A stretch of 64,000 nt of DNA from Lytechinus pictus. Its lineage: Eukaryota. The translations under genes and the position numbers were made by a program. The stretch spans positions 46,812,001 through 46,876,000 of the forward strand of contig NC_087251.1 of NCBI RefSeq assembly GCF_037042905.1. The letters are read 5' to 3'. The notes under the pieces were generated by a model. It had not been told where the DNA came from. It did not search any database and saw nothing but the letters and a program-made list of their open reading frames with translations. How positions within the stretch are numbered: the stretch's first letter is position 1; each line of letters begins with the position of its first letter. This document shows, in pieces, positions 31,899-62,249 of this stretch.

Positions 31899-33737
31899 TA
31901 TACACGCAGCACCCACAATTCAATAAACCGAGATTAGTATGCATAAGAAGTTTTACGAAGTCAGAAAGTACATTAGAGTTGATCTGTACTTTATACATGT
32001 ATATTCTACATTAAAAGGCGTATAATGATGTCCCATTGTGCTTCGTTTTCACTGATCTAGCGAGAAAAAAGTGATTACTTGTACAAAACAGTGCAGCCCT
32101 GTATTTCATACCACAATTTTCATATCGAACTTCTCCATTTTAACTGTCGCCATCGACGCCAAACTCGCAATGGCCCACAAAATGCTCCTTGCCTTAAAAG
32201 GTGTTCACAATCTCTATTTTCAAAGTGGTACATAAAATAAAACGATCGAGCTACTGTCTAATTCTGTCATGTATTGGATAGTAGCACTTCCCTGCATGCC
32301 ATCGCGAGTATTCGACAAATCCCTAACTTTTCACCCCAGTCACTCGATCTTAATTGCCCCTCCATGTCTTTTATGGTCTTCAAATGGGACGGTCATCAGA
32401 TCAAATTCATTTTGTCTTTCGGCAGACTTGCATGTCAACAAAATAAGGGTCATACCTACTCCCCGTTGTTTTAAATCAATCAGATATCCAATGAGAACAC
32501 GTTCTATCACAATTAATTAAAAGAGTGCTATTATCATTATTATGATTATAGATGATATATTTCTCCCCTCGTTCAAAAGCATTAATGACATCATTGTGTA
32601 TGTTGAGAGGGCAGAGGGTCATTCGTACAGGTAAAAGCCCTCAAAACAAATACGTAAGACTATAATTACACAGTTCAAATTTGACTTAAAAACCGAGAAA
32701 CCTTTGCCCCCTGCCTTAGTTTTTATCTTAAGAGTCCACAAATATGACCACCGCGAGTGGAGTTTTCAATGTGTGGTTTAGATGGCTGCAGGTGTGTAGT
32801 GGCGTACAGATGGGATGCTTGCACCCCCACAGAGAGAGAGAAAGAGAGAAAATGAAAGAAATTGAAAAGCGAGAGGGGTGAAATATGACTTATTTTTGAT
32901 ATTGTGTCAAAATCTATCGAAAATTGTGATTTTTGTAATAAAATATCGAAATTTTTGCTCACTCGCTTCGCTCTCTTGCAAATTTTTATAAAAAATTACG
33001 CAATACGCCATACCTAGCCCCCCTCAAACTTTCTGGCTCACAACGCCGCTGTCTATATGGCAGAGCCACCAACATGAACAAGAACATTTCAGCATTTTAA
33101 AACCTGAAAATCAGTAAATAAGTGCGGAGTTCAGTATTAAAAAAATACCAAAGGACCGCACCTAAAACTGAAACTTTAAAAATCAGTATTTTGCATGAAA
33201 CCATTCATCATTCGTCTCACTTTTCAGTATACCAAAATACTGAAATTCTAGTACAAGTTGGCAGCTCTGAAAATGTATATTATCCAGTTATCAATTACAT
33301 TTTAACATTTCATTTATTTTTTTTCTTAACAGACTGATCGAAATACTTCATGAAACCCTCGATGACTGCGTTGGGAAAGATTTTCATACTTTGGACACCA
33401 AGCGCCTAATCATGCTAATATTGCAAAAATAGAAATTCAGTCACTTGCATAAGTTAAGACTCCTTAATCAAACACGATTGCAATGCTACTGGGGCGTGAG
33501 TATTACTCAATATTTACAATAGCTATCAAGGGACGCGAGATGTCGGGAGAGATCCCGATTGCTTTTAAACTTTGAGAACTCGTAGAAGATTAAAGATGAC
33601 CTTTATATCGACACACTTCACGTGCAAGAACAGCCCTTGAGATCCATGAAATAGTAAATGAGACCTTTATACCGACTGAAATACATATCAACTCCATACT
33701 TATTAACTTGTTAATATCTCGATATAATTTTATCAAC

Positions 33738-36700
33738 ATGGGTACAAAGGTGAAGGGAAAGAGAGGACCAAACGAGACAGAAGACGAGACGTTGAAGAAA
33801 CAAAAGAAGAAGAAAAGAATCTGGTCGTTTCGACTGATCCGCAAACGCAAGAGACTGTCCCAGTCGCAGGAGTTTCTTCACGATACCCAAGCTCAGAACT
33901 TCAGGATCGAACTCGAGATCGATGAGCAGGTGGAGAACGAAAGCGACGTCGAAATGGTGGTTGAGGACGACATCGAGCATCATGGCCCGCCCACGGAAGA
34001 CGACATCGTTAGGGATACTAGATCCGACGGTGACCACGACGTGGTTGACGGGATGGACGAGCCGACTGCTAAACGCAGAGGAGCAGACGAAAAGAAACGA
34101 CTGTTCAAGATTTGGGGAATTTCATTCAGTATAAAAAAGCGCAGGAAGAAAACAGAGTATTCCAAGTTTTCCGAATCGACGGACAATATTCTGGGTGATC
34201 CACATCAAACCGAACTAAAGGCAGATGAAGATGTTCATGATAGAGAAAATAGAAAAAAGACTAAAAAGACGAACTCAAAGAGGTATGTCCGCTTCGAGAC
34301 GGACAATGATGACGACAAAGAGAACATGGCGATGTCGATAGATGACGCGGAGGACAATGAAATCAACAACCAGCCACATTCGTCGTCGATGACGCCGAAG
34401 AAGAAAAAGAAGTCGACTAAAAAGAGGATAGCCAAGGTAAGAAAGGAGTGAGGGGATGTTCGCTCTTACTTAAAGTTAGTTTTATATTGACAGCAAAAAC
34501 AAAAACGCATATGTTTGGAGAAAATCCACTAGAAATCATTTTTTAACACTAAGTTTTATTGATTAAAAAATTATTATGTGTCAGGTGATGTAAATTGCCA
34601 TGTCAAGTGCCATTTTCTCAGAAAATTTGAAATTATTTTGTACATTCAGGGCAATTATTTCAAACACTTCTCATCTTTGAAAATGAACGACGATGAACCA
34701 ATCTATGAAATTGATATCGCATGACATTTCTGCTATTAGGTGACGTCGCAAAATTAAAATGTTAAAACTCTGTTATTCTTCGATAAACTTCCGTAAAATC
34801 TTCATTGATACAATTTTTTAATTTTTTATATTTTTATTAAAACCAATTTCATTCATTGTGCAAGGAAATAACGTTTTCTCAGGGCGCTGAGCGTTGGAGA
34901 AGGTATACGGTTTTTTTTAATATACGAGTCATACAAGCAAGCGAAACGAGCAAAACCTCGGCAAATCGATGATTGTTGTAATAAAGTTGATACGTAAAAG
35001 TTGAGTCGGACAGATAACAGGGGAAATTAAATGAAAATTCTGATGTTGAAAATACAATATAATGATTGAAAAATCCTTTCTTTTTTTCATAGGTACTCCT
35101 TTCCCTTTCTCCCTTTAGACCTATTAATTTAATTTGATCGATTATTTTTTTTCATTCTTAATTTGTTTATTAATTTCATTTCATTGTCTTATTCAAATTT
35201 CTTTGAGGAAGTATCGCCCAAGCTACTTGCACGAGAGCAGCTATCATTGAAATAAATAAATACACACTCTATCAAGTAAAAGACAATTCTTCAAATGAAT
35301 AAGATTATTGGGTAATAACTCAATTTGTTAACTAAATCTTTTTCAAACGCACTCTTTAATGAGATACATGAATTGGAATTGGACCATTATTTCCTTCCTA
35401 AATATATCAAAGGTCAAGTCTTCCGTCCTTGTTCATAATATCCTGGGTTTTTTTTTGTTGAGAATATAGAAATATTACAGATATATAACATCTATCATGG
35501 CTTTTCTCCAATTAGGCCATAGTAGTCTGATGGTGTGCCGAATTTGCATTTATTTCTATGAATTTTTATTTATAAAGTCAAAAAGGGGCCTAAGCTTTCG
35601 ATCCTAGCAGAATCTTCGTCGGAGGCAAAATGACAAACATATAAAGTGGAACAACCATAATATAGACCACAAACAAGCTACAGCAACACTAGAAACAAGG
35701 AGACAAAAAGGGCATTAGTGAGTAGAGAAGACCAATCAGGTTAGTGAAGGGGATGAAAGAAAAGGAGTAGGCAGACACAAAGGGAAGTTAGTGTAAGTAA
35801 GGCCAAGAGGGATTAAGATAATGAGGCAGGCAACATCAAACAGGATCTGGAACAAAACAGTGATAGAGGGATGAATAACTAGAGAATTAGTGAGAGGTGG
35901 GTCAAACAGGTTACAAAGAAAGGCTTAATAAACTGGTGCATAAGAGTGGGGGGAAAAAAGAAGAAAAAGAATGGGGAACAACTGATAATGTGCAAAAGAC
36001 ATATAAGTATATATGATAAAGCATTAAACAAACTAAGAGAAGAAGGTAAGTGTAAATATGTATCTATAAGTGATATGTATATAAATATATCCAAAAAAGA
36101 AATGTATATGAAAAAATATATAAATATATACACATATGGTGTAACTGATATGGTAATCCGCTAGGTGTGACGGGAAAAAACATAAGACTATATAGTAGGA
36201 AAGAAAAAAAATCTGTATATGTGAAAAAGAGGAAGCAAATTGCCTAAAAAGGTAAAATCAAATATAGAAGAGAGGGGGTGTATTATGAAGAAACCATAGT
36301 ATACATGTAAATAAGCAAATGTGGTAAATCTAAAAGAGGTGAGTGGAGAAAAAACAAATATATATATATATATATAATAATTATTATATCGCCTGAATAA
36401 GGAAGGAAAAATTGGAGCTGAGCTTGTATGAGATATGGGAGGAAAGTAGAGTAAGAAACTATAATGTAACTATTCAAAAGAGCTGAGGGGAAAAATTATA
36501 TGTATATATAAATTGAAAGTGGATAGGAAAGAAAAATCAGTCGTTCCCCTCTTGGATGTTCAGGCCATGAGGTTGGGTGGTGCGAAGTCGTCTCATCCAG
36601 AGCTTCTCCCTGCTAGTACGGACTGAGTCAGGACGGGTACCTAAAGATTCGATGCCCTGTAGCATCATGTCAGTGATGGAGTGGTTGGGGAGGTTAAAAT

Positions 36701-39700
36701 GGCGGCCAACTGGAGTGTCCAGCTTTGCTGTGTTGACGGTGGATCTGTGCCCGTAGAATCGTTTCTTGAGTGTGGTCTTGGTTTCCCCTATGTATTGTAC
36801 CCTACAAACTCTGCAAGTGATGAGATATACAACATTAGTGGTAGTGCATGTGATGTTGCCCTTGATTTGGTGAGACAGGCTGGTAGAGTTGCTGGTGAAA
36901 GTATCGCCCTCGTGAAGGTGTATTTCACATATGATGCACCTGTTGCTGGTGCATTTGAAGGTGCCATGCTGTATGGGAGAAGAATGGTTAGTGAGGGAGG
37001 GCACTTCAGCACGAACAATGAGGTCCCTGAGATTCGGTGGGCGTCGGTGTGCTAGAAGGGGAGTATCGGGAACGGCCTCTTGGAGACGATCAGAAGTGTG
37101 TAAAATGTGGTGGTTATCAAACAGGATTTTGCGGAGAGGGGGTAGATTGGGATGGAAGGTGGTCACAAGCGGTATTCTGTCGGTGGTCTCCTTGTCACTT
37201 TTTGGTTTGAGAACTTCAGATCTGGGGAGAGAACGAACTTTGTTAATTGCCAGTTGGACTGCCCTGGCCCCGTGGCCCCTAGCACAGAGATGTTTCTGCA
37301 GATTCCTGGCATGGAAGGGAAAATCAGGGTCCTCGGAGCAGATACGGCGAAGTCTGAGGGCTTGACTGTAAGCGATGCCGGTTTTGCAGTGACGGGGGTG
37401 GCAGCTGGATGAGTGGAGGTACTGGTGGGTATCTGTGGGTTTAGAGTATAGGGTAGTGGTGATACCATTAGACTTTTTCTGGACTGTAACATCAAGGAAG
37501 TGGGTTTCCTGTTGGAAGAAATCAGAAGTGAATTGGATGGTCCTGTGGAAGGAATTGATGTGGTCAATGAATGTATGGAGGCTGTCTTCATCCCTGGTCC
37601 AGATGAAGAAAATGTCGTCTATGTAACGCCACCAAATCCATGGGCGACAGGGGGCTGAATCTAACATCTGCTGTTCCAGCTTCGTCATGAAGAGACAGGC
37701 GAATGAAGGAGCCATCCAGGTGCCCATTGCTGTACCGAATATCTGTAGGTAGTGCTTGCCCATGAATGTGAAGTTGTTTTTTGTTAGTACATGAGACATC
37801 AGAGATTTGATATCGGATATGGGGGGACTGGAATGGCCACTGGCGGCCAAGGCTTCACATGATGCTTGGATACCTTCGTCGTGGGGAATGCTGGTGTACA
37901 GTGAAGAAACAATCCATTGCCTGTATGCAGTTCTTATTGTTCCAATCACAGCAAAATACACTTTCGACAATGTTATTACCCTTATGTATAGAAAATAATC
38001 AAAATATCATTTGGTATCATGTCGCAACGACCTTCGTAGTTAACACCCGCGACGTGTTCAAACAGTTTTGTTATAATTGGGTGTGGTATGAACTTTGTTA
38101 CACCTTGGTATACACGATATCTCGATGCTTTTTTTTTTTGGGGGGGGGGGGAGTGCTCCCTTGCATTGCTAGGACACATGAATAACCTAAAGCTGCAATT
38201 ATTACATTGCATGTTCGGTGTTAAACGAAAGATTGCGTTATCGTATTTACATATCTACTCATTAATGACATGAGTGTCATTATAATTTGTTATCATTTGT
38301 CATGTTTATTCATTGCCCTGGGAAGCGGGGGTTGCTGCGTGTATTATTTTCCATAGGCAGCACCCCCTGAAAATCTTGGTATGGTATCCCGGGCCGTTTC
38401 ATAAAGCTGTTCTTAAGTTAAGAGCGACTTTAAGAACGACTGGTGGTCCTTTCTTGTGGTAAATGGTATACACAAAAACGTTAATTGGCGAGGGTTTTGC
38501 GCGTAAGAAATGATCACGAGTCGTTCTTAAAGTCGCTCTTAACTTACGAACAGCTTTATGAAACACCCACCCGGTATATAGTAAAATTTAAACCAAAATC
38601 ACCTTCATTTTTTATTGAAAAAACAAATTTTTTGGCTTGTCAAATTCCTCCTGACAAAAATGACCTTTATTTCATAGTGAAAACTTTTTTTTTTGCTTGT
38701 CAAATTTAAGACAGCTACCCCTATTTAAAAGAAATCGTTCCCAGGGCCTGTGTTTATTATCATAAAATGATGATTAAATTATGTGATCAATTTCGAGGTT
38801 GAATATACGCTCATGCTCAAGGTTTCCCATAATGTTCACACAATGTTGTTCCCCTCTCAACATTGAATCGAATAACCAAAAGAGATGGATAACTAAAACA
38901 GAAGACTTCGGACCATCTAGGACGGTATTACCACTTAGAATAAATCAATGTCCCTTGTAATATTTGGAAACATCATTTTGTCAGATTTTCCAAATTTTAT
39001 AACATTTATATTCGCCACCATATATATGCAAGTGAAAAATTACGACATGAATATGGCTTTGTTATTAAAAGTTTCAAACTCACGTAGAATGGGGAGAATT
39101 TCAGTGATTTGGAATATATTCTAATGTTACTATCAGATGATTGCACAAGAGATATTCACCCATGAAAAGTTTCATCTAGGCTATCATGTTTTGTAGCATA
39201 TTGTACGACAATTTGACCACACTGGAAGAAAACAGTGTCAGAAATTGCTCACAGTGTGCTCATAGCATGTCCAGTGTGTTCACAGTGTATTTATAGTGTG
39301 CACACATTGTGTTCACAGTGTGTGCACAAGGTGCTCACAGTGTGTTTACAGTGTATTCATAGTGTGCTCACATTGTGTTAACATTGTGCTCAAAGTGTGT
39401 GTACACTGTGCTCATAGTATGTTCGCAGTGTATATTCATAGTGTGCTCATATTGTGTTCACATTGAGCTCAAATTGTGTTCAAAGTGTGTGCACAAGGTG
39501 CTTACAGTGTGTTCAGTGTATTCATAGTGTGCTCACATTGTGTTCACAGTGTGTGCACAATGTGCTCATAGTGTGTTCGCAGTGTATATAACATAGTGTA
39601 CTCACATTGTGTTCACAGTGTGTGCACAATTCGATCACAGTGTGTGCAGTGTGTTCACAGTGTGTCCACACTGTTAAAGTGCTCATTAAACAGTGTGGAG

Positions 39701-44733: not shown

Positions 44734-44766
44734 TGACGTCATACGCGTGCCTTGGCAACATCCAAT
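44734..44766 (+). promoter_or_regulatory. Candidate promoter cluster of the TMEM262-like gene: CRE + imperfect RFX X-box + CCAAT
   Basis: TGACGTCA at 44734-44741, cgtgccttGGCAAC at 44746-44759, ccaat at 44762, ~270 bp upstream of the ATG. Possible 5'-UTR intron 44851-44918 with a CTAAC branch point. Confidence 0.45.
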
Positions 44767-45026: not shown

Positions 45027-47437
45027 ATGGCGTTCAACATTTGGGCCCTGACTCAGAAGAAGACTCTCTATGTATACACATCATCATTGTCTGTTTTGGT
45101 GTTGGCATTCATTATCGTCTTTGATCTTCTACAATATACCGTCTTCGAAAGAACAGATATGACCTCGCAAGGATTCACAGAGAGCTTACTGGTAAGAATA
45201 TTAGAAGTATGTTCAAGATTTTTATTTGGAGACGCCCCAATCAAATAATGACCACTATCTTTTAATTATTTTGTAGCTTCAAATGCTTTTAATTTTCACA
45301 TAGTTTCATTCATAGTAATACTAATAGGATCTTGTCTATCAATTGCTTTCGAATTACCTTACGAACTTGTGTATGCATCGACTTTCACATTATTTTCGTA
45401 ATTGTAAATAGATCTACTGCTGCAGATCTATTCTACATAACATGTAGGATGGGGGTGGGGTGTCCGGAAACTTTAAACTCTTTGAAGCCTTCTTTTTGGG
45501 GCTTCGGATGACACAAAAAATATTAATTCATTAGTTGTAATCTTCAAGTTTGTTCTCTATAATATTGCCTACATTTTGTACAAGAAATCGACGAGAATTT
45601 GCGTTAAAACGTTTCCAAATGGCAATTAAAATCGATTGTCCGAACACAAAGCCTGTCCAGACATCACCTGGGTTCAGATTCATGCAAATTTGCATTCACA
45701 TTTTGAAAGTTTTTTTTTTTAAACATATTTAATCTTTTAAAAACTAAAGTGAAATACCTGGTGAAAGTTGATTGTCGCATGTTGAATTTACTTGTGTAAA
45801 GAAATATCATACCCATATACTGACCCATATTAATCCACTTTTTATGTTAATAATTTTCAGCTCGGGCTTTGCGCTCGCATTATTTGATTATTGAAACATG
45901 TATCGTCTTCATGACTAACTGCAAACAGTCCTTAACATGTACCTTTTCGATCAGGTGAGAACGTATATTAAAAAATTCTGCTCGCACTTCGCGCTCGTAG
46001 TAATTATTTAGTTACATACGCATCTTGTTCAGGATCACAAACATTGCCCAGAATGTTCAATTTCAAGACAAAATACATGATATCTCCAAAATTTTCAGCT
46101 CGCGCTTCGCGCTCGCACTATTTAAATAGGGCTTATGAGATTATTATACATTTATGCTGTTTTATAAGAATAAAGCTAAGAAATGGCCACTAGAATTACC
46201 CCTTCAAAGAAACAGATCCAAATCAACATTGAGCGGCCGATCGGGGAAACTATGGGTGATTTTTTTTTTCGCCCCCCCCCCCCTCCATCCATTGGCGAAA
46301 GCTGGATCAACCCCTGATTAAAACACCAATCATTTCATATTGCTTTGCTAAACAAATCGATTACTTTTTGTTTCTTCAGACGATTCATGTTTTGAGCTAC
46401 TACACGGCCTTACTAGGGTTCGTCTATAACACGAAGGCTGGGAAGAGATTGGGCGCTGCTAAACTGGAGTGGATTTCAGTTGGTAAGAGAATGAATGGTG
46501 TACAGTGACCCCCCCCCCCAAAAAAAAAAAAAATGTATATATAAATAAAACAATAATACAATAAAATAATAATACAAGAGGGCTGCCTATGTACAAGATA
46601 GAGACGGGCAGAAGAACAACTCATACAACTGGATGGATGGATATATAGATAGATAGAATAGGTAGGGGGGAATTTTTCCTTTGGTCATATTTTTTCTGAT
46701 GGATAAAATAACAAGAAAGTTGATGAAATTACAGTCCCCCTTTTTTCATTTCATTTGTTATTTCAAATGAACGTTGGTAGAAAGTCTACATGAGTTCTGG
46801 TAATCATGTATTCTATTGGCAAACGATAAGGCCCAACACAACACACAAAGAATGCCTCGTCTACTACTAAAATGCTATGTGGGTTGTATTGATCAATAAT
46901 ATTATGAGCATTAAAGAATAAAAGAAAAGATGCAAAATATAGTGGATATGGTATATTGAGAGTGAGGAAGACATTTAATCTGGATTGGACTAAAGTTGGA
47001 AATGTAAGTCATGCAATAGATTGCTAGTGATGTGACCTTGTAGTTTTGTATATCTTTACTCTCGAAGACCAAAGGTATGTCATGTGTCATAAATGGGCAT
47101 TTGACAGAGAATGTGGAAGAAGTTTCCCCTGCAAGATTTTCATCCGATTGACCACCCAATCATACCCCGATTCTAATACCCCCCCCCCCCCCCCCCACTT
47201 TGTTTGTTGAGGTATAAAACTAAAACTGTTTCCAAATAGGCCTATAGCAAATTAAAATAGAATGAAGAATATGTTATATAAAAAGGTAAGATACATTACA
47301 TAATATCATATTTGGGCCATTTATATCTCTCTTTCTCAAATGCAGTTGCAACGTTTTTGCTGTCAATCATGCGAGTAGGCATCGAAATCAGCTTCCTCTC
47401 GTTCCGCAAGCAAGCGTTCAAGAATTTCAACGAATGA
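45027..47437 (+). CDS. TMEM262: Three-exon, 119-aa, three-transmembrane protein; TMEM262 / CatSper auxiliary subunit eta (CATSPERH)-like
   Basis: Exons 45027-45191 (phase 0), 46380-46482 (phase 1), 47346-47437 (TGA). Protein: MAFNIWALTQKKTLYVYTSSLSVLVLAFIIVFDLLQYTVFERTDMTSQGFTESLLTIHVLSYYTALLGFVYNTKAGKRLGAAKLEWISVVATFLLSIMRVGIEISFLSFRKQAFKNFNE. Size, three hydrophobic segments and motif spacing match my recollection of mammalian TMEM262, and it is convergent with ZFPL1. The gene model is more certain than the name. Confidence 0.72.
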
Positions 47438-50400
47438 CGGACAGGGAAGCACCGGAAGATGTCTTGAAATGTCACTTATCTTTCCATCATTTTTTGTTTC
47501 ATTATTAAAAGGACCAAAGCCTCTGGATGGCATTGTATAGTCAATCCTGCATTAGTGACCATTTGCACAGAAGGTCCACATCTCTATACAGACCAAAAAT
47601 TTGGTCTCCCCTTGAATAAAATTCCCAATTGAAACACATCAAAAGAACCTGTCCACAAATACCACCTGTTCATGAAGACAGTTTTTCTCATTTTCTTTGA
47701 GTTGGTCTTCATATATGGGTTTGCCTGACATGACAGCCAAGTCAACCGGAAATAACTGATAATGAACCTTGAATTTTGAATCACTGTCTACAACAATCAA
47801 TATCAATTTAAATGTTATGTATGTTCTGATTTGCAATTAATATTTATATAGGTTAGATAATAAATTGAATCTGGATGAAGACAGAAATTTAAACAATCTT
47901 GTTGATCTCACTTTTCACTAATAGATGCATAGCTTTCTTTAATATTTCCTTGTCTGATTTTTTCAACTTTCGCCATTCTGTTTCTCTTCTTCCCATTCCA
48001 CACATTAATGTTATTACAACGGTAAGTACATGTCTCATATTGCCATCACATTAAACACCAAAGAACTAATCATAAATAATATTGTACTTTGTAGCATCTT
48101 TATTGAAATGGTTAAAGAACGCATTTTCTTTTCATATATTTCAACAACAATTTCATTAAAATTCCAAATTTAGAATATACCACGTCTTATGAGAGCAAAG
48201 CATGATATTCTGTCAATGTGTGTAGCTCCCAACATAAGACCCATTCTAAATGAACTAATCATGACATTTTTATTACATATTTGTGTGATGTAATAAAGGA
48301 CATAGAAAAACACATAACATGCTGATATCTGTACACAATTGAATAATTATACAAACAGCTCATTTTGACCTCTTTAGGAATGTAAAACAAGATTGCCAAG
48401 CATTGAATTTGCTGGACTAAATTGACAAAATAAATTTTCATGAAGTTTATGCGATAGAAGTGGACATTACTTATGTATGAATAGCAGATTTGCAGTCCCA
48501 CATGAATTCATGTTTTGTTGGTGCTATTAAGAATTACTTATATTGCATACATACAAAATACACCGGATTTGTTTTTCAAGTCTTCTTGTACACAAAAAAA
48601 ATCTAAGGATGTTCTTTTAGCAAAAATCTCTTGAAATTAAATGACTTAATAGGTGAGAAAATAGTCCCTTTTCAAATAATTAAACTTTTTTTAACACAAG
48701 TGCTTCAAAAGATGTTTAAAATGACTACAATACTGAAGTACTGTAAATGAATGTGTATTATCTTAATACCTGGAATAACCAAGGATAAATCCTTATAAAA
48801 ATCAAAATAAGTCCTTAAAAATGAAATACTTATATGAATACTTGGAGAAATATTATATCACTACATTGAAAGTCATTAACTGATTGCGGCTATACAGGAA
48901 TTCAGTATCCTACTTCATAAGACAAACTGGAATTAACCAAAATGCTATCTTGACAAAACTACATGCATTTGCAATCAGTGACTGGCAAGTATAGAAACAG
49001 TGTTATACATAGTGCGATCACTTTCATTCAATTTATCTAAAGTACATGTAGAATATAATTTGATGGTAGAATCTGGAATGGAAATTCTTATATAATAAAT
49101 TCAAATCTCTCTCCCATTCTTGTTCTTTACATGGGAAGGGAGTAGTTGCACATTAAAGACTCTATAAATTAATTCTAGGACATATATTACTCTTTATATA
49201 CTACCCTTGAACTATATTTAAAGCTGTCTACCAAATTGATTTTAACACCAATCCATAATCCCATGGTAAAAATAGAAATGCATTCAATATTTCTATGTTT
49301 TTTTATTCAATGATAATTTGGATATATTGCAAATAAATAAGAATATAGAATTTGGAATCTTTATTAAGTCCCATGACCTTAAACTATCCACTATTTGGGT
49401 AATCTATCTACTTGATTAGAGATGCAAAAATCATGATAGTTTGGTCTGAGTATTGTCATTTTGGGCAATTAAGAATATTTTATCAGCATTGGCTCTCACC
49501 ATCCAAGGATTAAATTAGCAAGAAATGTGAATGATAAGTGATCTACACCACCCCAACAAAAAGTTGATTTGAATAAAAATAGTAAAATCAAACAAGCATA
49601 ACACTGAAAATTTCATCAAAATCAGATGTAAAATAAGAAAGTTTTGCTTAAATTCGCAAATCAGTTACTGCACACCCTGGTCGGTATGCAAATGAGGAGA
49701 CTGATGACGTCATCCACTCACTATTTCTTCTGTATTTTATTGTAAGAAATATGAAATATTCTAATTTCCTCTTCATTGTCGAGTGAAACAACGATTAATT
49801 CCTCCATGAACATGTGGAATTAACATTGTTTAATACTATATGGTTCAGTCAAGTTGGTCCTTATTGTCAAATCTGTAAAAAATGAAATATTGTATAATTT
49901 AAACAATAAAAAACCAAAGAAAAAGTGAGTGAGGGACATCATTGACTGCCTCATTTGCATGTCACTGAGTTGTGCATATCACTGTTTTGTGAAAAATAAG
50001 CAAAACTTTAAACTATCATAACTTTCTTATTTTACAACAAATTTTGATGAAATTTTCAGCGTTACAAACTGTATGTTAGTTTGATTTTTCTCTATTTATT
50101 CATATCAAAATTTTTCTGGAGTGGACTTGACCTTTAATATGATTTCAAACTGGTCCATTTATTCAAGGAACGTAATATCCTATGGGAATTCAAGTATTTC
50201 ACCCTGATTGCCTCATTTCAACCAGAAGTTAAATGGATACTCGATTGCATAAGAAATATGTGCAATTTTAGCAATGTTTGTAAGGAGTCGAGCATGAATA
50301 CTCCCAAGGGAATGGAAAAGGTGTCAGACACATTATGTGTGGGCAAACCTGAGCGCACGTATCGCAAAGTGTAGGGGGGTATCAATCCAGAATATAAAAT

Positions 50401-52575
50401 GTCTGTATCAAGAAAGCCTTTGCAATCAGAAACTCGGAACAGAAAAATAAATATCTACGCTGTACTCTTTCTTATCAATATGAACAAAAATACTTGATAA
50501 ATCGGATGATCATTTTTGGGCAATTCCATAAAATAAATATGTCCATACCCAATGCAGGACCTTTCTGAAAACATTTGTCTCTACCGACATTTACTAGTTC
50601 ATATAAAGAGTTATGCTTTCAAATTATCATGGCTTGAGCAGTTCATGTAATGGATTAACAATGGAGAAGAAGGGTTGGACATACAAAATGTTGATCATTT
50701 TTATAGGATTTCCCCTTAAGCCATCTCTTGGAGAACTTCCGCCTCTTCCAAACTACATTTTCATGGGAAAAAAATTATATCAACCACAAGTAATCAAAAC
50801 CATACTACTCAATATACCTTGTGTGGATAATGAATCATGTTATATAAATCTTGGTAAGACCTTGAAATATTCATTTTTATCGACAAACAAACAAATGTAA
50901 ATTTTCAGCCACTCCCTTCAATAAATTCATGAATGCAAAATTAAAAATAAATATATTTGATAAATGTATATGATTTATTGACAAATTAAATAAAACAAGA
51001 CATATAAAGTAATAAACTCTAATATTTGAAATAATGGTTGACTTGTGGTGCTTCACACATTGTGTTTCATTCCCATTCATTGACAGTTCACTAGAAATCA
51101 AATACAATGTAAAAATCATGCTCTGGCTGGCTAACAACTTGCATATCTGGAGTTTGAATTTTGTGATCTTCACTGACTAATGTGTTCTGAGACGATCAGA
51201 TGCAAGAATTTTGGTAGCTTAAAACATTAGTCAGTGAAAATAACTGAATTTTCTTTTCATAAATGCTCTCCAGATCTCTCGATATGGACAGAGATTTGTC
51301 AGGAGAAGACATTTGGCAATATTTCTGTTACAAGTGACTATAAGATAAATTTTTCAAGTAGGAGAATAGAATCCACTGATGAGAATTTCTTGAAAAGATC
51401 CTCAATTCTGGAGAAACTCAAGATCCAAGCACAGATATGTCTGAGGAGGGTGTTGGTCAAACAGATACAGGTGATAATGATAAAAAAAAACATATGAGGT
51501 CATATTTCAGGTAAAAAAATGGATTTCTTTGATGTACTTGTACTTGAGCGCAATGTGGAGTAAATGGACCCCTACAAAAAACAGCATTTGCTGATAAAGT
51601 GTTCCATCACAACTAAATAAATAATTAAAAAATAAATTGTTGTCTCGTTTTGGAGATAACTTTTATCAGAGGAAATGAAAAGTGAGGGCAGATGACATGC
51701 TAACAGTTACTTTTAAGAGCATTCAAATCATCCCCTTTAATATGGTCATCTGATCTAACTACCACTCATGCGTAAAATTTGTGCATAAGCTTTATGGATC
51801 CCCATCCTGGCCTCTAGGTATATGCACAGTACAACATGCAGGCAATACCATGGAAACTTAACAAGCATAAGGATATTTACAGAGTATGATTTGCACTGAA
51901 AATGAGATGTTTTATACATCAAAAACCAGAGTCAGCCATAATCTCTTATCTTCTATCAGCTGGGTAGGAGTCTCGTTGCCATGACGGCCATCAATGCCCT
52001 GTAAAAGGTGAAGCCATGAAGCCGACATTCATCACCAAGTGCTTTCCTTCTATTCAGTTAGTATGTCTTCACCTTCACACAAATGTCTGCTTCTTTGCTT
52101 GCACATGCACACACACAGACTGTCACCATAACTTCCACTCTGGATTGTAACGGCTGATAGCTTTGGGTGCGGCAAATTCAAGTTGTCACTTTATTCCTTG
52201 CCACACGATCTAAAAAATGATGATCCGCCATATTACCGTAGGTACTTGCATCTCTAAGTTTTTACTTTGTCCTCCACCAAGGTTAAGCATGGTAAGTCAA
52301 TAACAGCTGAATAAACCATGATTTGTCATTAATTCACAGGCCTCTAATTTATTACAAATATTGTATCTATACACGACTGCACTGGCCCATAAGCTCTAAA
52401 TCAAGTTGATACCGAAGCTCAAAGCTAGAATATGATAAATGCTTTAAATATAAACATAATGTTTGCATTGGTCACAGCTCAGCAGAAAAAAATGACTAAA
52501 GAAGTCAGGTTGATCCCCTCAATGTGACTTTGGAAAGAGTCTTTTCTCTCATCATCCTCACTATGCAAAAATTTC

Positions 52576-55500
52576 TTATATTCTTCTCCCGATCCTGATG
52601 TTGGGGTTGTTCATGGGGTCGAGTAGGGGGTCCGAATTCGCTGATGCTCTGCCGACCGACGTCATGATGATGACGAAGGTGAAGAAGGCAAGAAGACAGA
52701 TGAGGAGCAGCACGGCGATCCTCTTGATCTGGGCGTTGGAGTCGACTGGTTTCCTACTGCTTGTTCTTGATCTGAAAAAGAAGAAAACCAATTAATAATC
52801 AGATTTTATTTTCCAAATCAACAATCCCCATTGCCATTGAACTCCAGTGCTACTGCTACAACAGGCATTACTTTCACAGGAGTGGTGCAACAGTTCAATG
52901 ACGAGAGGGGAGGGAGCGGTTGATTGTACAAGAAAAAGAATAGGTGTGTGTAAATAGTGTTGAGAATAAAAGAATGGAAGGATTGGTGATGAGTGAGACT
53001 GGTTGCATTTGTGAGAGTTTATAGGAGCAACGTGATTGCTTGCTCACTCTTGACCCACTTATGTGTAAAATTGGTTTTTCCCCTCTCTCTTCTTTATCTA
53101 AAAAAATACATGTAATTCCCCCCCCCCCCAATCCTTTAAAAAAAAATACTTTAACCTTTAATCTGACATTGCGTTATTCTTTCGTCATGATATGTGTTGT
53201 ACTTCATATTTTGTATTGTACAGAAAAAACTGTGCATGTACTGCCTGCGGTCTGCAACATGCAATATTTCAAGAAATCCTTTTGAATTCTATTAGTTACA
53301 CCCTGCTTGTTCACGTAATATCGAACCAGAACATAGATATTACCCGTATTACGTAAGAACAAGCAGGGTGTAACGATTTTACCTCTTTAAGTGTCCCCTT
53401 ATATTATAGCGGAATATGCAAAACCATGTATTTTGAGAATGATTTTTGAAAGGAAGTCATTCATTACATCACAATGATCACAGTAAAAAGAATGCACCTT
53501 TTGCCATTGAAACTGATGCACAAATAGTAGTGCGCAGTGCGATGCTTAGATACGCACTTAATACGGCTTCATATTACATGGTTGAAATCAGCACTGGGCA
53601 TGCGCCTAATAATGAAAACAACAGCTAAACACTAAACAGGTAATACTTGCTCATATTACCAGTTTGATCTTTGTGACCCAGTAAAATAGGTAAATACGGG
53701 TTTGTCTCACAAACAAAATCGACCAATCAGATTACAGAATTCATGAGAAATATGGCCCACCCCATTATGGGGTGTTGCAAGAAACTTACGATCAATTGCA
53801 AGTCTATTTTTGTTTCCTAAATCAATCATATGTCTTGCAGTTAATTGCAAATTAGTGATTGATTGCTAATCTGCTCCTTGAACCAAGAAGTTTAATCTGA
53901 TTTGCTACAGCTAACATTGATCTATCAATTGTAAAATTGCAACAGAATATTTGCAATTGATCGCAAATATTTTCTTGCAACACCCCCTAAGGGGGTGTTG
54001 CAAGAAAAGAGATAAAATTCAATATCTTAGAGATAAAATTCAATATTATTGCCACTTGTACTGCAGCTTCTTCTAATTCTCCTATAAATATATCTACTCA
54101 ATTTTCTGTAGCTGTTAGATTTTCTGAAGTTGGTGCTACCACTGATATCAACATTTAAGCACAGGGTTCCCGGCGATTCAAGAAAACAAATTCCCTGATT
54201 TTTCCTATTTTCCCTGATGAAGTTTAAAAATTCCCTGATTATTATTGAAACCCATTCCCAGTTTTGCATGTTTTCTAAGTTGTTGTAGTGAATTACATGT
54301 ATTTTCAGTATAAAAAACAATGATGTGAAACTTATTAGTACCACCATAACAAGTCATTCAATGGATGTTATTTTGATATTCAACAAAATATAACAGAGTC
54401 TGACTGACTACCGTGCTTTCGACTTTTGGGCCGATCAAAATTCCCTGATTTTAGGCATTTTCCCCTGATTTGAGGTATTTTTCATCAAATTCCCTGAATT
54501 TTCCCCGACTGGAAAAAAAGTAAAATAATTTCCCCTGATAGGCTGGGAACCCTGAAGCAGCAATCTGGAGTATGACAAATCTTACTTGAACCATCTTGCA
54601 AACCAGTGAAGAGCACTCCTCCTCTTGTACTTGTCTTTGTCATGATCTTGAACGATGTCTACAATCATTTCCTCCTTCCTTGTATCATATACTCTGTGCT
54701 CTGTTAAGTGGAAATAAATTTAATAGTTTCTGATTCAGGCATACAGCTCCAGTTTTTATATTTTCTCATTTCAAACAAAACGAAGTACAAAATCCATTAC
54801 AAGTATCAGGAAAATCAATACTTAGATTAGGATATATGCAACATAAAATACGAACAACTTTAGAACGATAAATCTTAAACAGTAAATTAAAAATTCACTT
54901 GATTGTTGATACAAATAATGATAAAAAAATTAAAATAGAATTCACTTTCATCATTTTGTACTTTGCAAAATAGAAAACAATGCAAGAGCTTTAGCAATCT
55001 TACATACAGCATATCTCCTGATTGGAATATAATTTGATTACATTTGCGGCACTTGACAAATAATCGAATGAGACATATTTGCAAGATACTTTTGAAATTC
55101 AAAAAGATTTTAAAAGAAGATACAATTCTAGAAATCTCTTTTAAAACCCCCTAATTTTTCTTTTCAGTCAAATATTTTCTCAAACTTTCACTAATCCTAT
55201 ATTCTATCCTCTAATTAAAAACAAAAGAAGAAACACTGATCTAATTTCATATCTAGTGAAAAAGAACATAACGTAACATACCAGCTCCACCACCACTTGC
55301 GAACTGCTTGTCCGACCTGGTGTGTGGCCCAACGCTCTCCACTGCTGATGTCCCAGTCGACCCCACCCCTAAGGCTGCTGGTTGCCTCGGCTGCGGTCTC
55401 GTCGTCTGACCATAGCTCCCTCTTGAGACAGGGGCGGGGGCAGCCTGCTGGGGAGAGACTACAGCTATTGCAGTTGGGGAAGTTGCTGGTATGGAATCAA

Positions 55501-58500
55501 AGGACTGAGTTGCTGCTGGTAATGTAGATTGTGTGTAGGCTGGGATGTCTTTCTTAGGCTCTTCAATCTGTAAGTGATCGTGAAAATCAACACAAAGCTG
55601 TAAGAACAATTCCACAGATTTATATCTTATTTTGTCCACATCAACAAAGCTACTGGCGAACGTTCCATCGACACTCTACAGCAATGCCAAGTAATAGGAC
55701 GGAACACATTTTTAATGGGCAAGGTCCGAGTCCGACATGCCACTTCCATGGGTCAGCTTCACCTTGTAGTTGCAGTAATCACCCTTACCCCCTCTTCCTC
55801 TGCCAGAATGCATTCTCCATCATAAACCCAAACCTCCTGTTCTCTTGCTCCATTTGCTTCTTTCATCCATTCCTCCTTTGAACACATCCGGCAGAGGCGG
55901 CAGAACGTCAGGCTCATACAATGAAAGTGGAGAGGCACTTATTGTTTGGCAGACAAAAGGTGCCCCTCCACTTTCTTTGTCCAAGCCTGATGTTCCGCCG
56001 CCTCTGACATCAGGAGAGTGTTACAGAAAAGGACTTGTCGGACGATTTATCTGACAAGTCCTGTTTTATCCCACAGTTACCATGCACTAACAAGGCTTCT
56101 CAGCCAATCAAAATCGGGGAAAGTTGTCTCATCGAATGACATGTTGGATGAAATTATTGATGAAACATTCCCTAGTAGAAATGGAGAGCCTCGAAGTGTT
56201 ACACCAACTTGTAATGAAATTAATAGGGTACAAATAATCTGGAAGACAAGTGCTCATCTTTTATTTTCACATTTATTAGAGTGGCAAACATTCTTTTATG
56301 TCACAAAAAGTACATTTCATGGCTACATAATCATCTACGAGCATGCCTGGTGCATTAATCTGATGCCTCCGCAGCATACGTACATCTGCATATAAATCGT
56401 GTCAATTATGAATTATGACACTACTCTCCTCCAACGACAAATCGAAGCAACTCTGTGGAATGAGTTTCTTAGTAAATGAGGAAAATGTGTCATTGCTTTT
56501 ATGTGGAAAATACTGGTTTATTGGGAGTTACTTGCTTTAGAAATATCTACACTTGACAAATTGGGATTGTGTGACTCCAATTCCTTTAACATCACAGTAA
56601 AGCGACCAGAAAATATCTTAAATCAAGAAAAAACAACAGAGTTCTTTCCTTTTGTCAGAGTACGACAGAACACTTGTCAACTAAAAAAATCTGTTGGCAG
56701 CAAATGCTTAAGGGGAAGACCTGTCTCAATGCTATGCTTTTGGCAAAGGAGTGAGTTGGGATAGAAATGGGCCACTGCACTATTGTGAAAATGTTAACAT
56801 TGCCTTGATGGGAGATCCCATAGCCCAGTAGGTAGAGCACTGGTTGTGCATGCCAGGGTCCTAGGTTCAAATGATTTTAAAACATTTTTTTCCTCTACCG
56901 TACTTTAACTCCTTCCAATAATGATGGCAGGAAGTGGGGCGACTTACTCTTTAAAACAAGGATTAATTCCGATCGATACTATCGCCAAATTTTACGCACC
57001 AAATACCAAAATAGGCCCTTGACAGCATCATTTCCTGTGCGCGCATGAGGCGTGCATGTAGCCATCGTATGATGTGATTGCAATGCCCGTGCTGATCTGG
57101 GGTTTCATCTACCTGGTTTTCGCCGCCTTTCCTGCATTCGATTTTCAGAAAAGACAGAATGGAGTTATTTCTAATGCGGCGTTTTCAGGTTGGATCTATT
57201 GTGCCAAAAGGTGAGGAATTTTCACAAATTATACAAAACACCATGAAGGATGACAAGAGTGTGAATTCTCATACTGGCAAGTTTGTTGTGCAAGCGTTTT
57301 TGCAAATAAATGCTTAAACAGGGAATGGGATTGAACATAATTTGTGATGAATGCTTGGTAATCTAGCCTGCTGGCATGTACAGTGGATTGCGTGAGTTGC
57401 CTTGCTTTGGCGTAGGAACTTGATGATTTATAGGAGCCTACTGCGAAGTAGTAAGTACAGGGCTAATCATTGCCTCAAACGGTGCCCAAAGAGCTCAGCT
57501 TCATTTAGAGCACTGGTCCTGCAAGCCTGGGTCCTGGGTTAAGGTGTACATTTCATAGAGACTTATAACTATTATAACTTTGCCATTTTGGAACTGCAAT
57601 GGAAACATTGATTGTCACTGGCTGCTGATCCCTGTTACCATGGTAGTAGCCATAATGGCAAAGTTACAAAAATTGTGGTTCTTAATGGAACAGCCTCCAG
57701 ATCCCAGTCAGGGCAGTGTAATTTTCTAATATTAAGTTCTATGATTATTTCCTACCCTACAAATTATGATACTTATAATTTTACAATACGAAAACATTTT
57801 TCTTCATTTGTTTTGTTTTTCTTTTTGCAGGAAACAAAAACAAACTTACCAACGACAGTCCTAATCCTGCTCTTGCCCAGTTGACCGTTGCTAGATATTT
57901 CCGGAGTGTCTCAGCGACAGGTGATATCATGTTGGGGCTTGGGAATATGCTGACGTTACAGGTCGGACATGTGTAGCCTGCTGGTGCAGTGTTGGAAGGG
58001 AAGTTCCTCGCATAGGCATCCAAGCATTCCCAGTGAAACACATCTGTGAATAAAAAGATTGAAAGCGGAATAGAGAAAATAAAAGTACAACTACACATAT
58101 AGTTCTGAAATGCAATTTACAGGGTCATGTGGTCTAATGATTAGAAAATTGGACTCATGATCGTGAGGTTGTGAGTTTCAATCCCCGCTTGGCCATTATC
58201 TCCCCTTTAACCAAAAGGGCCATAGAGTTATTTCTGTTGTCTATGAAGTCAGCCACTATGACTGATTAACATAAAATTGGTTATTGACCAACTTTGCATT
58301 TGATGTGGCGGAAAGCTGCCCCAAGTTCCTATGGGAATGACTTCAATAGAAACAGAAAATACATTGCACTTCAGCAAAGTACGTCAGCTATAAAGTTGAC
58401 TGTGAGTGACACCAGTCCATCCACACTAAAATAAAAATATCAATAACTTGGTTCCTTGTATTTGAATTCAAAACATGACAGGTCTATGGTAAAAAATAAA

Positions 58501-58720
58501 AGAAAAAAGGGAGTAAACTTGAAGTGCATTACAACAAAATTTGTGAATATTAAAGACATTCAGTAAAAATTGCCTCTTGTTGAAAATGGAGTAGTAGGTC
58601 TTACTTACCATAACATAACAATCTAACCACATCGCCATCTGCCAATTCATTATCACACAATGAACACTTTGTACTGTAATCACTATCTTGTAGCCATTGA
58701 AGATATGACTTCACAATACA
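52576..58720 (-). CDS. ZFPL1: Zinc finger protein-like 1 (cis-Golgi tail-anchored protein); first coding exon lies beyond the window end
   Basis: Exons 58720-58609 ([23 protein letters not shown]), 58043-57850 ([33 protein letters not shown]), 55567-55282, 54700-54586 ([23 protein letters not shown]) and 52771-52576 (TM helix, [15 protein letters not shown]). All GT-AG and phase-consistent. Confidence 0.96.
53769..53987. mobile_element. Palindromic MITE in a ZFPL1 intron, followed by a second truncated start
   Basis: ggggtgttgcaagaaa ... tttcttgcaacacccc, then gggggtgttgcaagaaa again at ~53991. Confidence 0.75.
54162..54554. mobile_element. MITE with CAGGGTTCCC TIRs and a 5-bp TSD (hAT-like)
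   Basis: aagca|cagggttccc ... gggaaccctg|aagca; internal aaattccctga repeats. Confidence 0.85.
56014..56172 (+). mobile_element. Diverged copy of the MITE family found inside the transposase at 61499
   Basis: Shared ggacttgtcggacg.tttat..gacaagtcc..tatcc.acagttaccat..gccaatcaaaatc..ttgatgaaac. Confidence 0.8.
58121..58330 (+). mobile_element. tRNA-derived SINE, same family as the copy at 12239
   Basis: gggtcatgtggtctaatgattag..gtgagtttcaatccc..cattatctcc..gtcagccactatgactgattaa. Confidence 0.75.
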
Positions 58721-60514: not shown

Positions 60515-60703
60515 GTAAGTTTTATTCTGCAAATCTGTTTCAATGCATTTAGGTCTATATGAATATTCATAAGCCCCATTTAGTTTTTGGTATAGGTAGG
60601 CGTTGTCAAATTATGTAGATCTTTGCCTGAGTGAGTGATACTGATTACGGTTCCCGCCAATTTGATTCACTTCACACTAAGTCGTCGATGTAAGATCATC
60701 AAC

Positions 60704-62249
60704 ATGACTTGGTCAAAGCGAGAGCAATCCAACATCGGATTACTAAATTTTCACAACCCATTTTCTTTTCACCTGCTTTTAGCCCAGATGTCTTGTACAA
60801 ATGGTTAAAGGAGAATCATTTCATTGCATCACAAATATTTTGTGAAGTTTGCAAGAAACCTTGCAAGGCAATTAAGAAAGTGGGAAGGAAAGGAGGCAGA
60901 TGGCCTCACGAGAAGAGTTATTCCGGCCACAAGTTTTCCTATTTTGAGGGAACTCATTTTGATGTCCGGGAGATACTAATCTTTTTGAGAGAGTGGATCT
61001 TGGGATCTACACTTCACCGCTGTGCTGTTGAATCCGAAATGGATTACAAGAACTCCGCCGTGGACTAGGCAAATTTCCTCCGGAAGTTCGTCCATGATCT
61101 GTATTATGAGTCAAAAACTTCGCGGGGAAGTTGAGATCGACGAGAGCTTGTTCAGGAGGCGAACCAAGTTCCATAGGGGAGATCCTCGCGAACTGAAAAT
61201 ATGGATCTTCCGGATGGTCGAAAGATCTTCAAATAGGATCGTTCTCTACCCAGTTGAGAAAAGAGACGAGAACACTCTGCTGCCATTGATCAAACGACGT
61301 GTGGAAAAGGGATCAACAATCTACTCGGATGGATGGCATGCCTATTATAGGTTGAACGAGATCAGGTATTGTCATTTTACCGTTGAGCACTCCCGACACC
61401 TTTGTGCAGAAGTATCGAGACATGGCAACAGGAGAGGCAAACACCGTTCATACTAATACGATAGAAGGTGCCTGGAAGCAAGGGAAAGACCACTTCTGGG
61501 GAGCGTTTCATGAAAGGACTTGTCGGACGTTTTATCCGACAAGTCCCATTATATCCGACAGTTACCATAGTAACAGTGCGGCTCTGCCAATCAAAATCAA
61601 GGAAAGATGTCAGATCTGACAACTTGTCGGACAAAAATGTTGATGAAACGCCCCCCAGGAGAATGAATGGGTGCAAAGCATCGACATTCGAATCTCATCT
61701 CTGTGAAGTGATATGGAGAAACAGGAATGCGGCAAGCAAACGCCTGCATTCATGGATTTGATCAGGGATCACTATCATCCCAGAGGAAAACCCGACAAGA
61801 AGGACAACCTCATGAGAGAGGAATCAACGAGCGAAGCCCCTGCCCGGATAGATTCTCCGCCAAGAGAACTAGTAGCTTCACCAGAGAGAGCATCGCCCCC
61901 ATTGCCTCCAAGAGACGTTCCCGGACTGTCAGGCATCCGTCCACAAGCCGCATCATCCGTGCATTCGTCATCCTCGACTCCCACCGTCAAGCACGTCCTC
62001 TCCTCGCTGAGTTCTAGCATCGCTAGTCCGCTTCGTGTAACATCGCCATCTTTCGGCCGAAGCAAGAAAGGCAAGGGGAAGAAGAAGCATAGAAGTGACA
62101 CTGTAACTGGCACATTACATCATCCTCCCGGCTTTGTACCCATCGACAAGAAAGAGAAAACCAAACCTTAGAAGGACAAGAGTGTAAATCTGTATGAAAG
62201 GCAAAACTTCGTTGCAGATTCAGGATCAGACGACGATTATTTCCAGTAG
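60704..62249 (+). pseudogene. ISXO2-like / IS1595 (Merlin) DDE transposase pseudogene
   Basis: N-terminal CxxC (CEVC), SAVD*ANF (TGG>TAG), VEIDES (D), WIF.MVER, RDENTLLPLI, GSTIYSDGW..Y (D), HFTVEHS, VHTNTIEGAW (E), FESHLCEVIWRN. Several frameshifts and stops, a MITE insertion, and a Ser/Pro/Lys-rich C-terminal tail. Confidence 0.93.
61499..61655. mobile_element. 157-bp Harbinger-like MITE inserted in the transposase
   Basis: ctg|gggagcgtttcat ... atgaaacgccccc|cag; removing it restores KDHFRRMNG. Confidence 0.9.

Follow-up and report, generated by a model that had tools for sequence, protein, structure and literature searches.

Among the subunits of CatSper, the calcium channel of the sperm tail, the closest described system to the gene treated here is mouse CATSPER-eta (TMEM262), a protein with three membrane helices that contacts CATSPER-theta, that joins the channel dimer by an eta-eta contact made by Trp3 of helix H0, and whose knockout abolishes all CatSper subunits and the current (passages of PMC12799140). 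CatSper channels number about 1,700 in sea urchin flagella and include beta, gamma, and delta subunits (passages of PMC7024835), and a table in PMC12638846 gives the pore subunits for Lytechinus variegatus. Here, we describe a three-exon gene of Lytechinus pictus that lies in a stretch of 64,000 nucleotides (hereafter, the window; assembly GCF_037042905.1, contig NC_087251.1, positions 46,812,001 to 46,876,000) and that we consider to be the sea urchin orthologue of CATSPER-eta, likely the three-helix membrane subunit of CatSper that is required for assembly of the channel; we put the probability of this reading at roughly 0.9.

The three exons (Table 1) are bounded by GT-AG introns of phases 0 and 1 and splice into 360 nucleotides that encode 119 amino acids with no internal stop. 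The reading frame starts at the first in-frame ATG downstream of an upstream stop, exon 2 is bordered by a polypyrimidine-CAG acceptor and a phase-1 GTAAGA donor, and the acceptor of exon 3 is TGCAG. The product has three hydrophobic peaks (19-residue Kyte-Doolittle maxima of 2.25, 1.37, and 1.90) and agrees at 119 of 119 positions with the RefSeq protein XP_063957595.1 (stored as P0042; L. pictus LOC135154668, annotated as “uncharacterized”), so an independent annotation carries the same exons. The in-phase exons, protein length, and three hydrophobic segments given in a preliminary description of this DNA are thus correct, and the four motifs that it named are present where it placed them, in three plus-strand frames. 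The gene model is already in RefSeq; the new part is its identity.

The protein is well kept among sea urchins. L. variegatus LOC121419018 (P0001, likewise “uncharacterized”) is identical at 117 of 119 positions and was the one longer protein retrieved with exon 1 as the sole query, its cluster containing XP_063957595.1; two other urchins keep 61 to 67% of the residues, and a relative of 122 amino acids sits complete on a contig of 1,109 bases, as expected of a spliced transcript. Among the 1,632 open frames of the window, the three exon frames rank first, second, and fourth with a profile of five vertebrate proteins and first to third with a profile of six nonanimal proteins. With a hemichordate query, the three exons were all recovered at the locus, and no better match appeared elsewhere in the L. 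pictus genome, in which the gene is single copy according to a search that scores best candidates only, such that a remote paralogue could escape it.

Assignment to TMEM262 with no better family is based on profiles run in both directions, the predicted fold, the tree, and one apparently common intron position, and the orthology proposed in the preliminary description stands on the same grounds. When a profile built from three sea urchin sequences was compared with 177,635 PDB sequences, the mouse chain 7eeb_M came first (E value, 0.26) and 9ubw_M second (E value, 0.33), the alignment with 7eeb_M being colinear across residues 23 to 114 of 116; the four pairs of motifs that the preliminary description had lined up between this protein and mammalian members are the pairs that HMMER aligns with this chain. 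The same profile found 39 sequences at an E value of ≤0.001 among 1.84 billion representatives and matched the named TMEM262 proteins of garter snake (E value, 1.2e-5) and sturgeon (4.3e-6). With a profile of 18 sequences that contained no known vertebrate members, 7eeb_M was again first in the PDB, now at an E value of 3.2e-7 (the next unrelated chain was at 0.97), which answers the profile comparison proposed in the preliminary description, and hhalign joined the urchin and vertebrate profiles at 98.5% over 105 columns. Conversely, a hidden Markov model (HMM) built only from five vertebrate proteins gave the protein of the window 60.9 bits and named invertebrate members 44 to 92 bits, with 2,100 shuffled sequences reaching at most 9.3 bits and 58 reversed proteins at most 7.2 bits; shuffling gives no imitation of unrelated membrane proteins, and the control against these comes from the PDB searches. 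Several polar positions are conserved across the 39 aligned rows, namely, Ser19 (36 rows), Asp33 (38), His58 (32), Tyr71 (33), Arg99 (34), Glu103 (31), and Arg110 (28). A PDB match with an E value of 1.8e-14 obtained from alignment A2 was set aside as circular, since A2 contains vertebrate members, and the only addition from the final word-based homologue search was P0058, which scored 15.8 bits on the vertebrate HMM and was left unclassified.

The predicted structure agrees with the profiles. An AlphaFold2 model of the L. variegatus protein, computed from the 39-row alignment, has three helices (residues 5 to 38, 47 to 74, and 79 to 105) at a mean predicted local distance difference test score (pLDDT) of 89.6, and superposition on the mouse structure, also proposed at the outset, favored CATSPER-eta: Foldseek ranked 7eeb_M first (template modeling [TM] score, 0.79; root mean square deviation [rmsd], 1.3 Å; 101 columns; E value, 5.6e-3) and 9ubw_M second, with the remaining listed rows at TM scores of ≤0.56. 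In a comparison with 48,161 structures, VIA ranked 9ubw_M first (Z score, 14.0; rmsd, 3.1; 111 aligned residues), the next structure having a Z score of 11.2. The short N-terminal segment is modeled as one helix continuing into the first membrane helix; the mouse H0 helix with Trp3 is not matched, the N terminus being short and variable and its Trp without a fixed position. Trp3 is not defining for the family, because human eta also lacks it (passage of PMC12799140).

The column of intron 2 appears to be common to the L. pictus gene, the sturgeon, and another urchin, as judged from read-through proteins rather than from DNA: the sturgeon sequences P0056 and P0057 depart from the family pattern at this column, and their residues there fit read-through of a phase-1 donor. 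Read-through products of other relatives (P0022, P0024, P0034, and P0035) depart from the family pattern at the column of intron 1. As models of sturgeon TMEM262, the database entries P0056 and P0057 appear to run into intron 2 and to lack the third helix.

Pfam scans of the single exons, P0001, the 39 aligned members, and two named vertebrate TMEM262 proteins found no family above cut-off, and the Pfam version searched seems to lack a TMEM262 model. A precomputed label, PF15837.11, is attached to P0001, P0002, P0003, and P0040 but is not reproduced by the version.10 model of this family; a newer Pfam model could already group these proteins. When the.10 model (DUF4716) was compared with the L. 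pictus genome, it gave four weak matches, all away from the eta gene and none above cut-off.

Several observations weigh against the identification of the gene as CATSPER-eta. Identity to vertebrate members is just 30 to 32% across about 105 residues, and identity to the mouse chain in structure alignments is 13 to 15%; PDB searches with exon 1 and P0001 as single sequences returned no chain at an E value of 10; garter snake TMEM262 compared with the L. pictus genome misses the locus and gives one chance match with stops; none of the 30 (of 39) representatives that were looked up is a mammalian TMEM262; and the representative search included one false positive, P0020, a repeat protein of 2,462 amino acids from Anaeramoeba that scores −2.7 bits on the vertebrate HMM. 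On the structural side, a three-helix bundle is a common fold, and the modeled match would amount to agreement and not to proof by itself; the Foldseek E value is above 0.001, the alignment behind the model contained four vertebrate members, and a Trp precedes the conserved Lys within 16 residues in 16 of the 39 rows, at offsets of 4 to 13.

A distant paralogue or a look-alike three-helix membrane protein that matches TMEM262 by composition would account for the low identity and the empty single-sequence searches, for a Z score that helical bundles can reach by chance (13 to 14, according to the note of the VIA tool), and for a precomputed label that names another family, PF15837. It would not lead one to expect reciprocal profile matches above the level of shuffled and reversed sequences, conservation of polar residues within helices, a tree that resembles that of the species, an intron column apparently held in common with sturgeon, the same ZFPL1 neighbor as in sheep, or a single genome copy, and version.10 of PF15837 matches neither P0001 at an E value of 10 nor the eta locus. 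We regard this explanation as very improbable and as largely refuted already. Less probable still is that the gene exists but is silent or has decayed, or that hydrophobic frames in the 3′ flanking DNA of ZFPL1 happen to splice together. No contig of one public sequencing run (X1) joins the eta exons, a result that is uninformative on expression, and one unspliced contig extends from 44362 through exon 1 to 45719, which would suit a gene of this kind. An open frame of 119 amino acids with canonical splice sites, its near identity in L. variegatus and retention in two other urchins, the complete relative on a transcript-like contig, and the same RefSeq model in two species all argue against it. 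The unspliced X1 contig, which is of low depth and spans the promoter and exon 1 as well as the beginning of intron 1, may itself derive from pre-mRNA, antisense RNA, or DNA.

The orthology could also be true without the function, if TMEM262 were a general ciliary or endoplasmic reticulum membrane protein that was recruited to CatSper only in vertebrates. We consider this improbable, although somewhat less so than the two explanations above. In its favor, conservation does not extend to the N-terminal part by which mouse eta molecules contact each other. Set against this, the 18 named members (from 30 of 39 representatives looked up, 11 of them without a species) include none from the flies, nematodes, molluscs, and most fungi that the published table gives as CatSper-less, all of which are heavily sequenced, and the L. 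pictus genome holds matches above Pfam cut-offs to both TMEM249 (theta; a gene of small exons at G000:C13:25271359-25275388, seen in L010, L011, and L016) and CATSPERB (beta; G000:C15:28962129-28966529).

If the gene encodes CATSPER-eta, as we believe, its role may be sketched from the mouse. The three helices would pack on the CATSPER4/beta side of the channel beside CATSPER-theta, and the subunit would be needed for assembly of the CatSper complex and its arrival in the flagellum, where sea urchin CatSper would supply the Ca2+ rise that steers chemotaxis. The helix core, with Ser19, Asp33, His58, Tyr71, Arg99, Glu103, and Arg110, is kept. We are less sure of the eta-eta contact that joins mouse channels in zigzag rows, which may be absent or otherwise built, because the N-terminal segment that carries Trp3 is short and variable outside amniotes. 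In the upstream region, candidate sites resembling a cyclic AMP response element (CRE) and an RFX X-box (Table 1) hint at a spermatid or cilia gene; among 5,000 shuffles of the 500-bp upstream stretch, 0.5% and 2.2% hold the CRE-like or the X-box-like pattern and none holds both, a statistic that is a hint only, as the patterns were defined after the sequence had been seen.

The eta gene, Catsperh, is among the subunits missed by a co-evolution screen, the range of its orthogroup being unlike that of other subunits (Huang et al. 2023, passages of PMC10523455), and the ARMH2 paper (PMC12638846) includes, in the OrthoDB source table of its Fig. 3 (2025), a Catsperh column that, within the parts covered, has entries for mouse, two garter snakes, white shark, and paddlefish, is empty for 11 of 11 invertebrate deuterostomes and for all other invertebrate rows, and is empty in 10 of 10 CatSper-bearing fungal and protist rows of table part 12. 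The text of PMC12799140 (PNAS 2026) mentions an alignment with “several nonmammalian species,” passages of PMC13674862 do not name the gene Catsperh, and our literature search, whose scope was titles, the starts of abstracts, and passages, with subscription papers and the current InterPro outside it, turned up no description of eta in any invertebrate or protist. What is new is an unannotated member of a known family together with a range far wider than that of the published table.

Looking up 30 of the 39 representatives gave a species for 19 and none for 11, and the 19 comprise 12 animal members, 6 nonanimal members, and the false positive. The animal members come from Lytechinus, Patiria, Saccoglossus, Branchiostoma, Ciona, Thamnophis, Acipenser, Carcharodon, Coregonus, Rhopilema, Acropora, and Actinia (those of Thamnophis and Acipenser being already named TMEM262), and for 11 of the 12, the covered rows of the table in PMC12638846 list CatSper pore genes in the species or its genus, Rhopilema falling outside those rows. 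The nonanimal members are from Paraphysoderma (a blastoclad fungus), Pigoraptor (a filasterean), Fabomonas (an ancyromonad), Ancoracysta, Rhodelphis, and Trimastix (a metamonad); CatSper itself is known in metamonads and a few other protists (passages of PMC8516963). These six proteins score 41 to 61 bits on the vertebrate-only HMM (shuffles, ≤9.3), and hhalign joins the nonanimal group to the vertebrates at 98.8%. A first animal-free profile, which retained long N termini, placed mouse TMEM262 second in the PDB (E value, 0.14) behind PsbZ; with the two longest members removed and two others swapped for cluster mates, mouse TMEM262 came first (E value, 0.004). The Rhodelphis protein, modeled from an animal-free alignment, also has three predicted helices (pLDDT, 81).

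The family tree follows species groups. In a phylogeny of 36 rows, from which five fragments and the one false positive were omitted and in which long proteins were trimmed to their C-terminal 135 residues, ambulacrarians (97/94), vertebrates (99/99), and nonanimals (99/95) each occupy one side of a starred branch, with cnidarians at 88/74; the tree is drawn from its midpoint and has no root, and its deep branches are below the starred threshold. Nonanimal members may stem from contamination of transcriptomes, an explanation opposed by the branch of their own that these rows form. The presence of family members in corals and single-celled flagellates points to a subunit much older than vertebrates, and we think it probable, if with less assurance than for the sea urchin orthologue itself, that CATSPER-eta is a core part of CatSper as old as the channel, a single family extending from mouse to cnidarians, a fungus, and protists. 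The preliminary description dated the subunit to before the split of echinoderms and chordates, an age that is borne out but understated, since the family reaches cnidarians and nonanimal eukaryotes. Were the deeper origin true, eta would have arisen near the root of eukaryotes and would no longer be a false negative of CatSper co-evolution screens, and its old role would be the assembly of single channels, the Trp-stacked eta-eta contact of the mouse zigzag rows having been added later.

The minus-strand gene downstream of eta is ZFPL1 (Table 1), with which it is convergent, the two stops being 5.1 kb apart. The gene has the ZFPL1 layout of N-terminal B-box-like and RING/U-box-like zinc domains, a linker, and a C-terminal membrane helix, and a single public contig joins all four of its in-window junctions as predicted. 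Exon 1 matches zf-B_box under the cut-off (E value, 4.5e-4), and the top Atlas clusters of exon 3 carry PF25998 (U-box_ZFPL1) at scores of 0.79 to 0.83, which have the standing of leads; all 10 of the 10 best family-bearing Atlas matches belong to the ZFPL1 family or clan, with scores under 0.9. The N-terminal motif presumably agrees with that of human ZFPL1. From the spliced exons, one contig extends to 50617, and others cover 50105 to 50642 and 48086 to 49573. The coverage stops 13 bases beyond an AATAAA on the minus strand, which would place a possible end of the ZFPL1 transcript at roughly 650 bases from the stop codon of eta, a weak hint that comes from contigs of one run. A very high-copy interspersed repeat lies at about 49550 to 50140, within the probable 3′ untranslated region (UTR).

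Linkage to ZFPL1 had been put forward as a trait shared with mammals, of which the identity of the neighbor and the adjacency hold here and the adjacency holds in sheep, while the tail-to-tail orientation in mammals is one that we assume. On sheep chromosome 21, ZFPL1 (42,614,303 to 42,617,433) and TMEM262 (42,617,767 to 42,618,327) are consecutive and 334 bp apart (PMC10626677, supplement 5, in part), and the two are also side by side in a listing of PMC10298528 (likewise in part). With sea urchin and sheep as the two end points compared, the link probably represents a gene pair inherited within deuterostomes, and nothing points to a shared function. The gene that comes next in sheep, VPS51, was not recognized in the 44 kb upstream here, as read by eye.

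Table 1. Features of the eta and ZFPL1 genes, in window positions unless marked otherwise (TM, transmembrane helix)
Feature	Position	Strand	Remarks
CRE-like palindrome	44734-44741	+	~280 bp upstream of eta ATG; possible promoter element
RFX X-box-like site	44747-44759	+	~280 bp upstream of eta ATG; possible promoter element
eta exon 1	45027..45191	+	Residues 1-55: short N terminus, TM1, outer loop; phase-0 donor GTAAGA
eta exon 2	46380..46482	+	Residues 56-89 plus one base: TM2, inner loop, start of TM3
eta exon 3, coding part	47346..47437	+	Residues 90-119: TM3, conserved Arg99/Glu103/Arg110, TGA stop
Candidate AATAAA poly(A) signals of eta	47615, 47859 (47615..47864)	+	From sequence only; AT-rich region
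Probable long ZFPL1 3′ UTR	48086..52575	-	Broken by high-copy repeat
AATAAA of minus-strand gene	48104-48099	-	
ZFPL1 last coding exon	52576..52771	-	C-terminal transmembrane helix, stop
ZFPL1 coding exon 5	54586..54700	-	Both junctions within one contig
ZFPL1 coding exon 4	55282..55567	-	Low-complexity linker
ZFPL1 coding exon 3	57850..58043	-	RING/U-box-like part
ZFPL1 coding exon 2	58609..58720	-	
ZFPL1 coding exon 1 (B-box-like)	L008:9086-8985		~7 kb past window end

Elsewhere, the window contains several features that do not concern the eta gene. Intron 1 of ZFPL1 encloses a remnant of an ISXO2-like (IS1595-type) transposase with broken frames (60694 to 61456, plus strand; PF12762; E value, 3e-17), and short related pieces recur at about 56000 to 56120, at 61465 to 61760, and in L016. 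An open frame of 489 amino acids (36537 to 38006, minus strand) has motifs like those of reverse transcriptases and, at its C terminus, a GIY-YIG match (E value, 2.4e-4), and we read it as a putative Penelope-like retroelement. Exons of a protein kinase-like gene lie at 1650 to 4514 on the plus strand (Pkinase; E value, 5e-5 for 3847 to 4155) with a coiled-coil exon upstream, and a Lys/Glu/Asp-rich open frame of 283 amino acids (33600 to 34451, plus strand) with several basic clusters has no Pfam match at an E value of 0.01.

The finding extends the range of a known subunit and does not describe a new kind of system. With eta, a missing component is added to the inventory of sea urchin sperm, the best studied among chemotactic sperm, and L. 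pictus is becoming a genetic model. Two questions are opened: whether zigzag arrays are ancient or a feature of amniotes, and which residues of eta constitute the conserved assembly surface. The range of the family also suggests that a minimal protist CatSper, possibly easier to express, would include eta.

Compared with mouse CATSPER-eta (chain M of 7EEB, 9UBW, and 9UBX), the sea urchin protein is alike in length (119 versus 116 amino acids), in the order of its three helices, in its colinear profile alignment, and in finding there its best fold match by two programs; it differs in its low identity in the structure alignments and in a shorter N-terminal segment with Trp at another offset. The TMEM262 proteins of garter snake (XP_013930219.1) and sturgeon (KAK1148587.1) and the unnamed whitefish and shark members share with it the modest identity given above over nearly the whole protein but form a vertebrate branch of their own (99/99), apart from the sea urchin. 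CATSPER-theta (TMEM249) is, like eta, a small membrane subunit of the same complex, is its direct partner in the mouse, and is known into invertebrates and protists (passages of PMC10523455 and PMC12799140; table rows of PMC12638846); unlike eta, it belongs to another family (two helices; PF15158) and lies on another contig of the L. pictus genome. The mammalian pair of ZFPL1 and TMEM262, finally, are direct neighbors there as the two genes are neighbors here, but 334 bp separate them in sheep, whereas in the sea urchin 5.1 kb, which includes the probable long ZFPL1 3′ UTR, lie between the stops.

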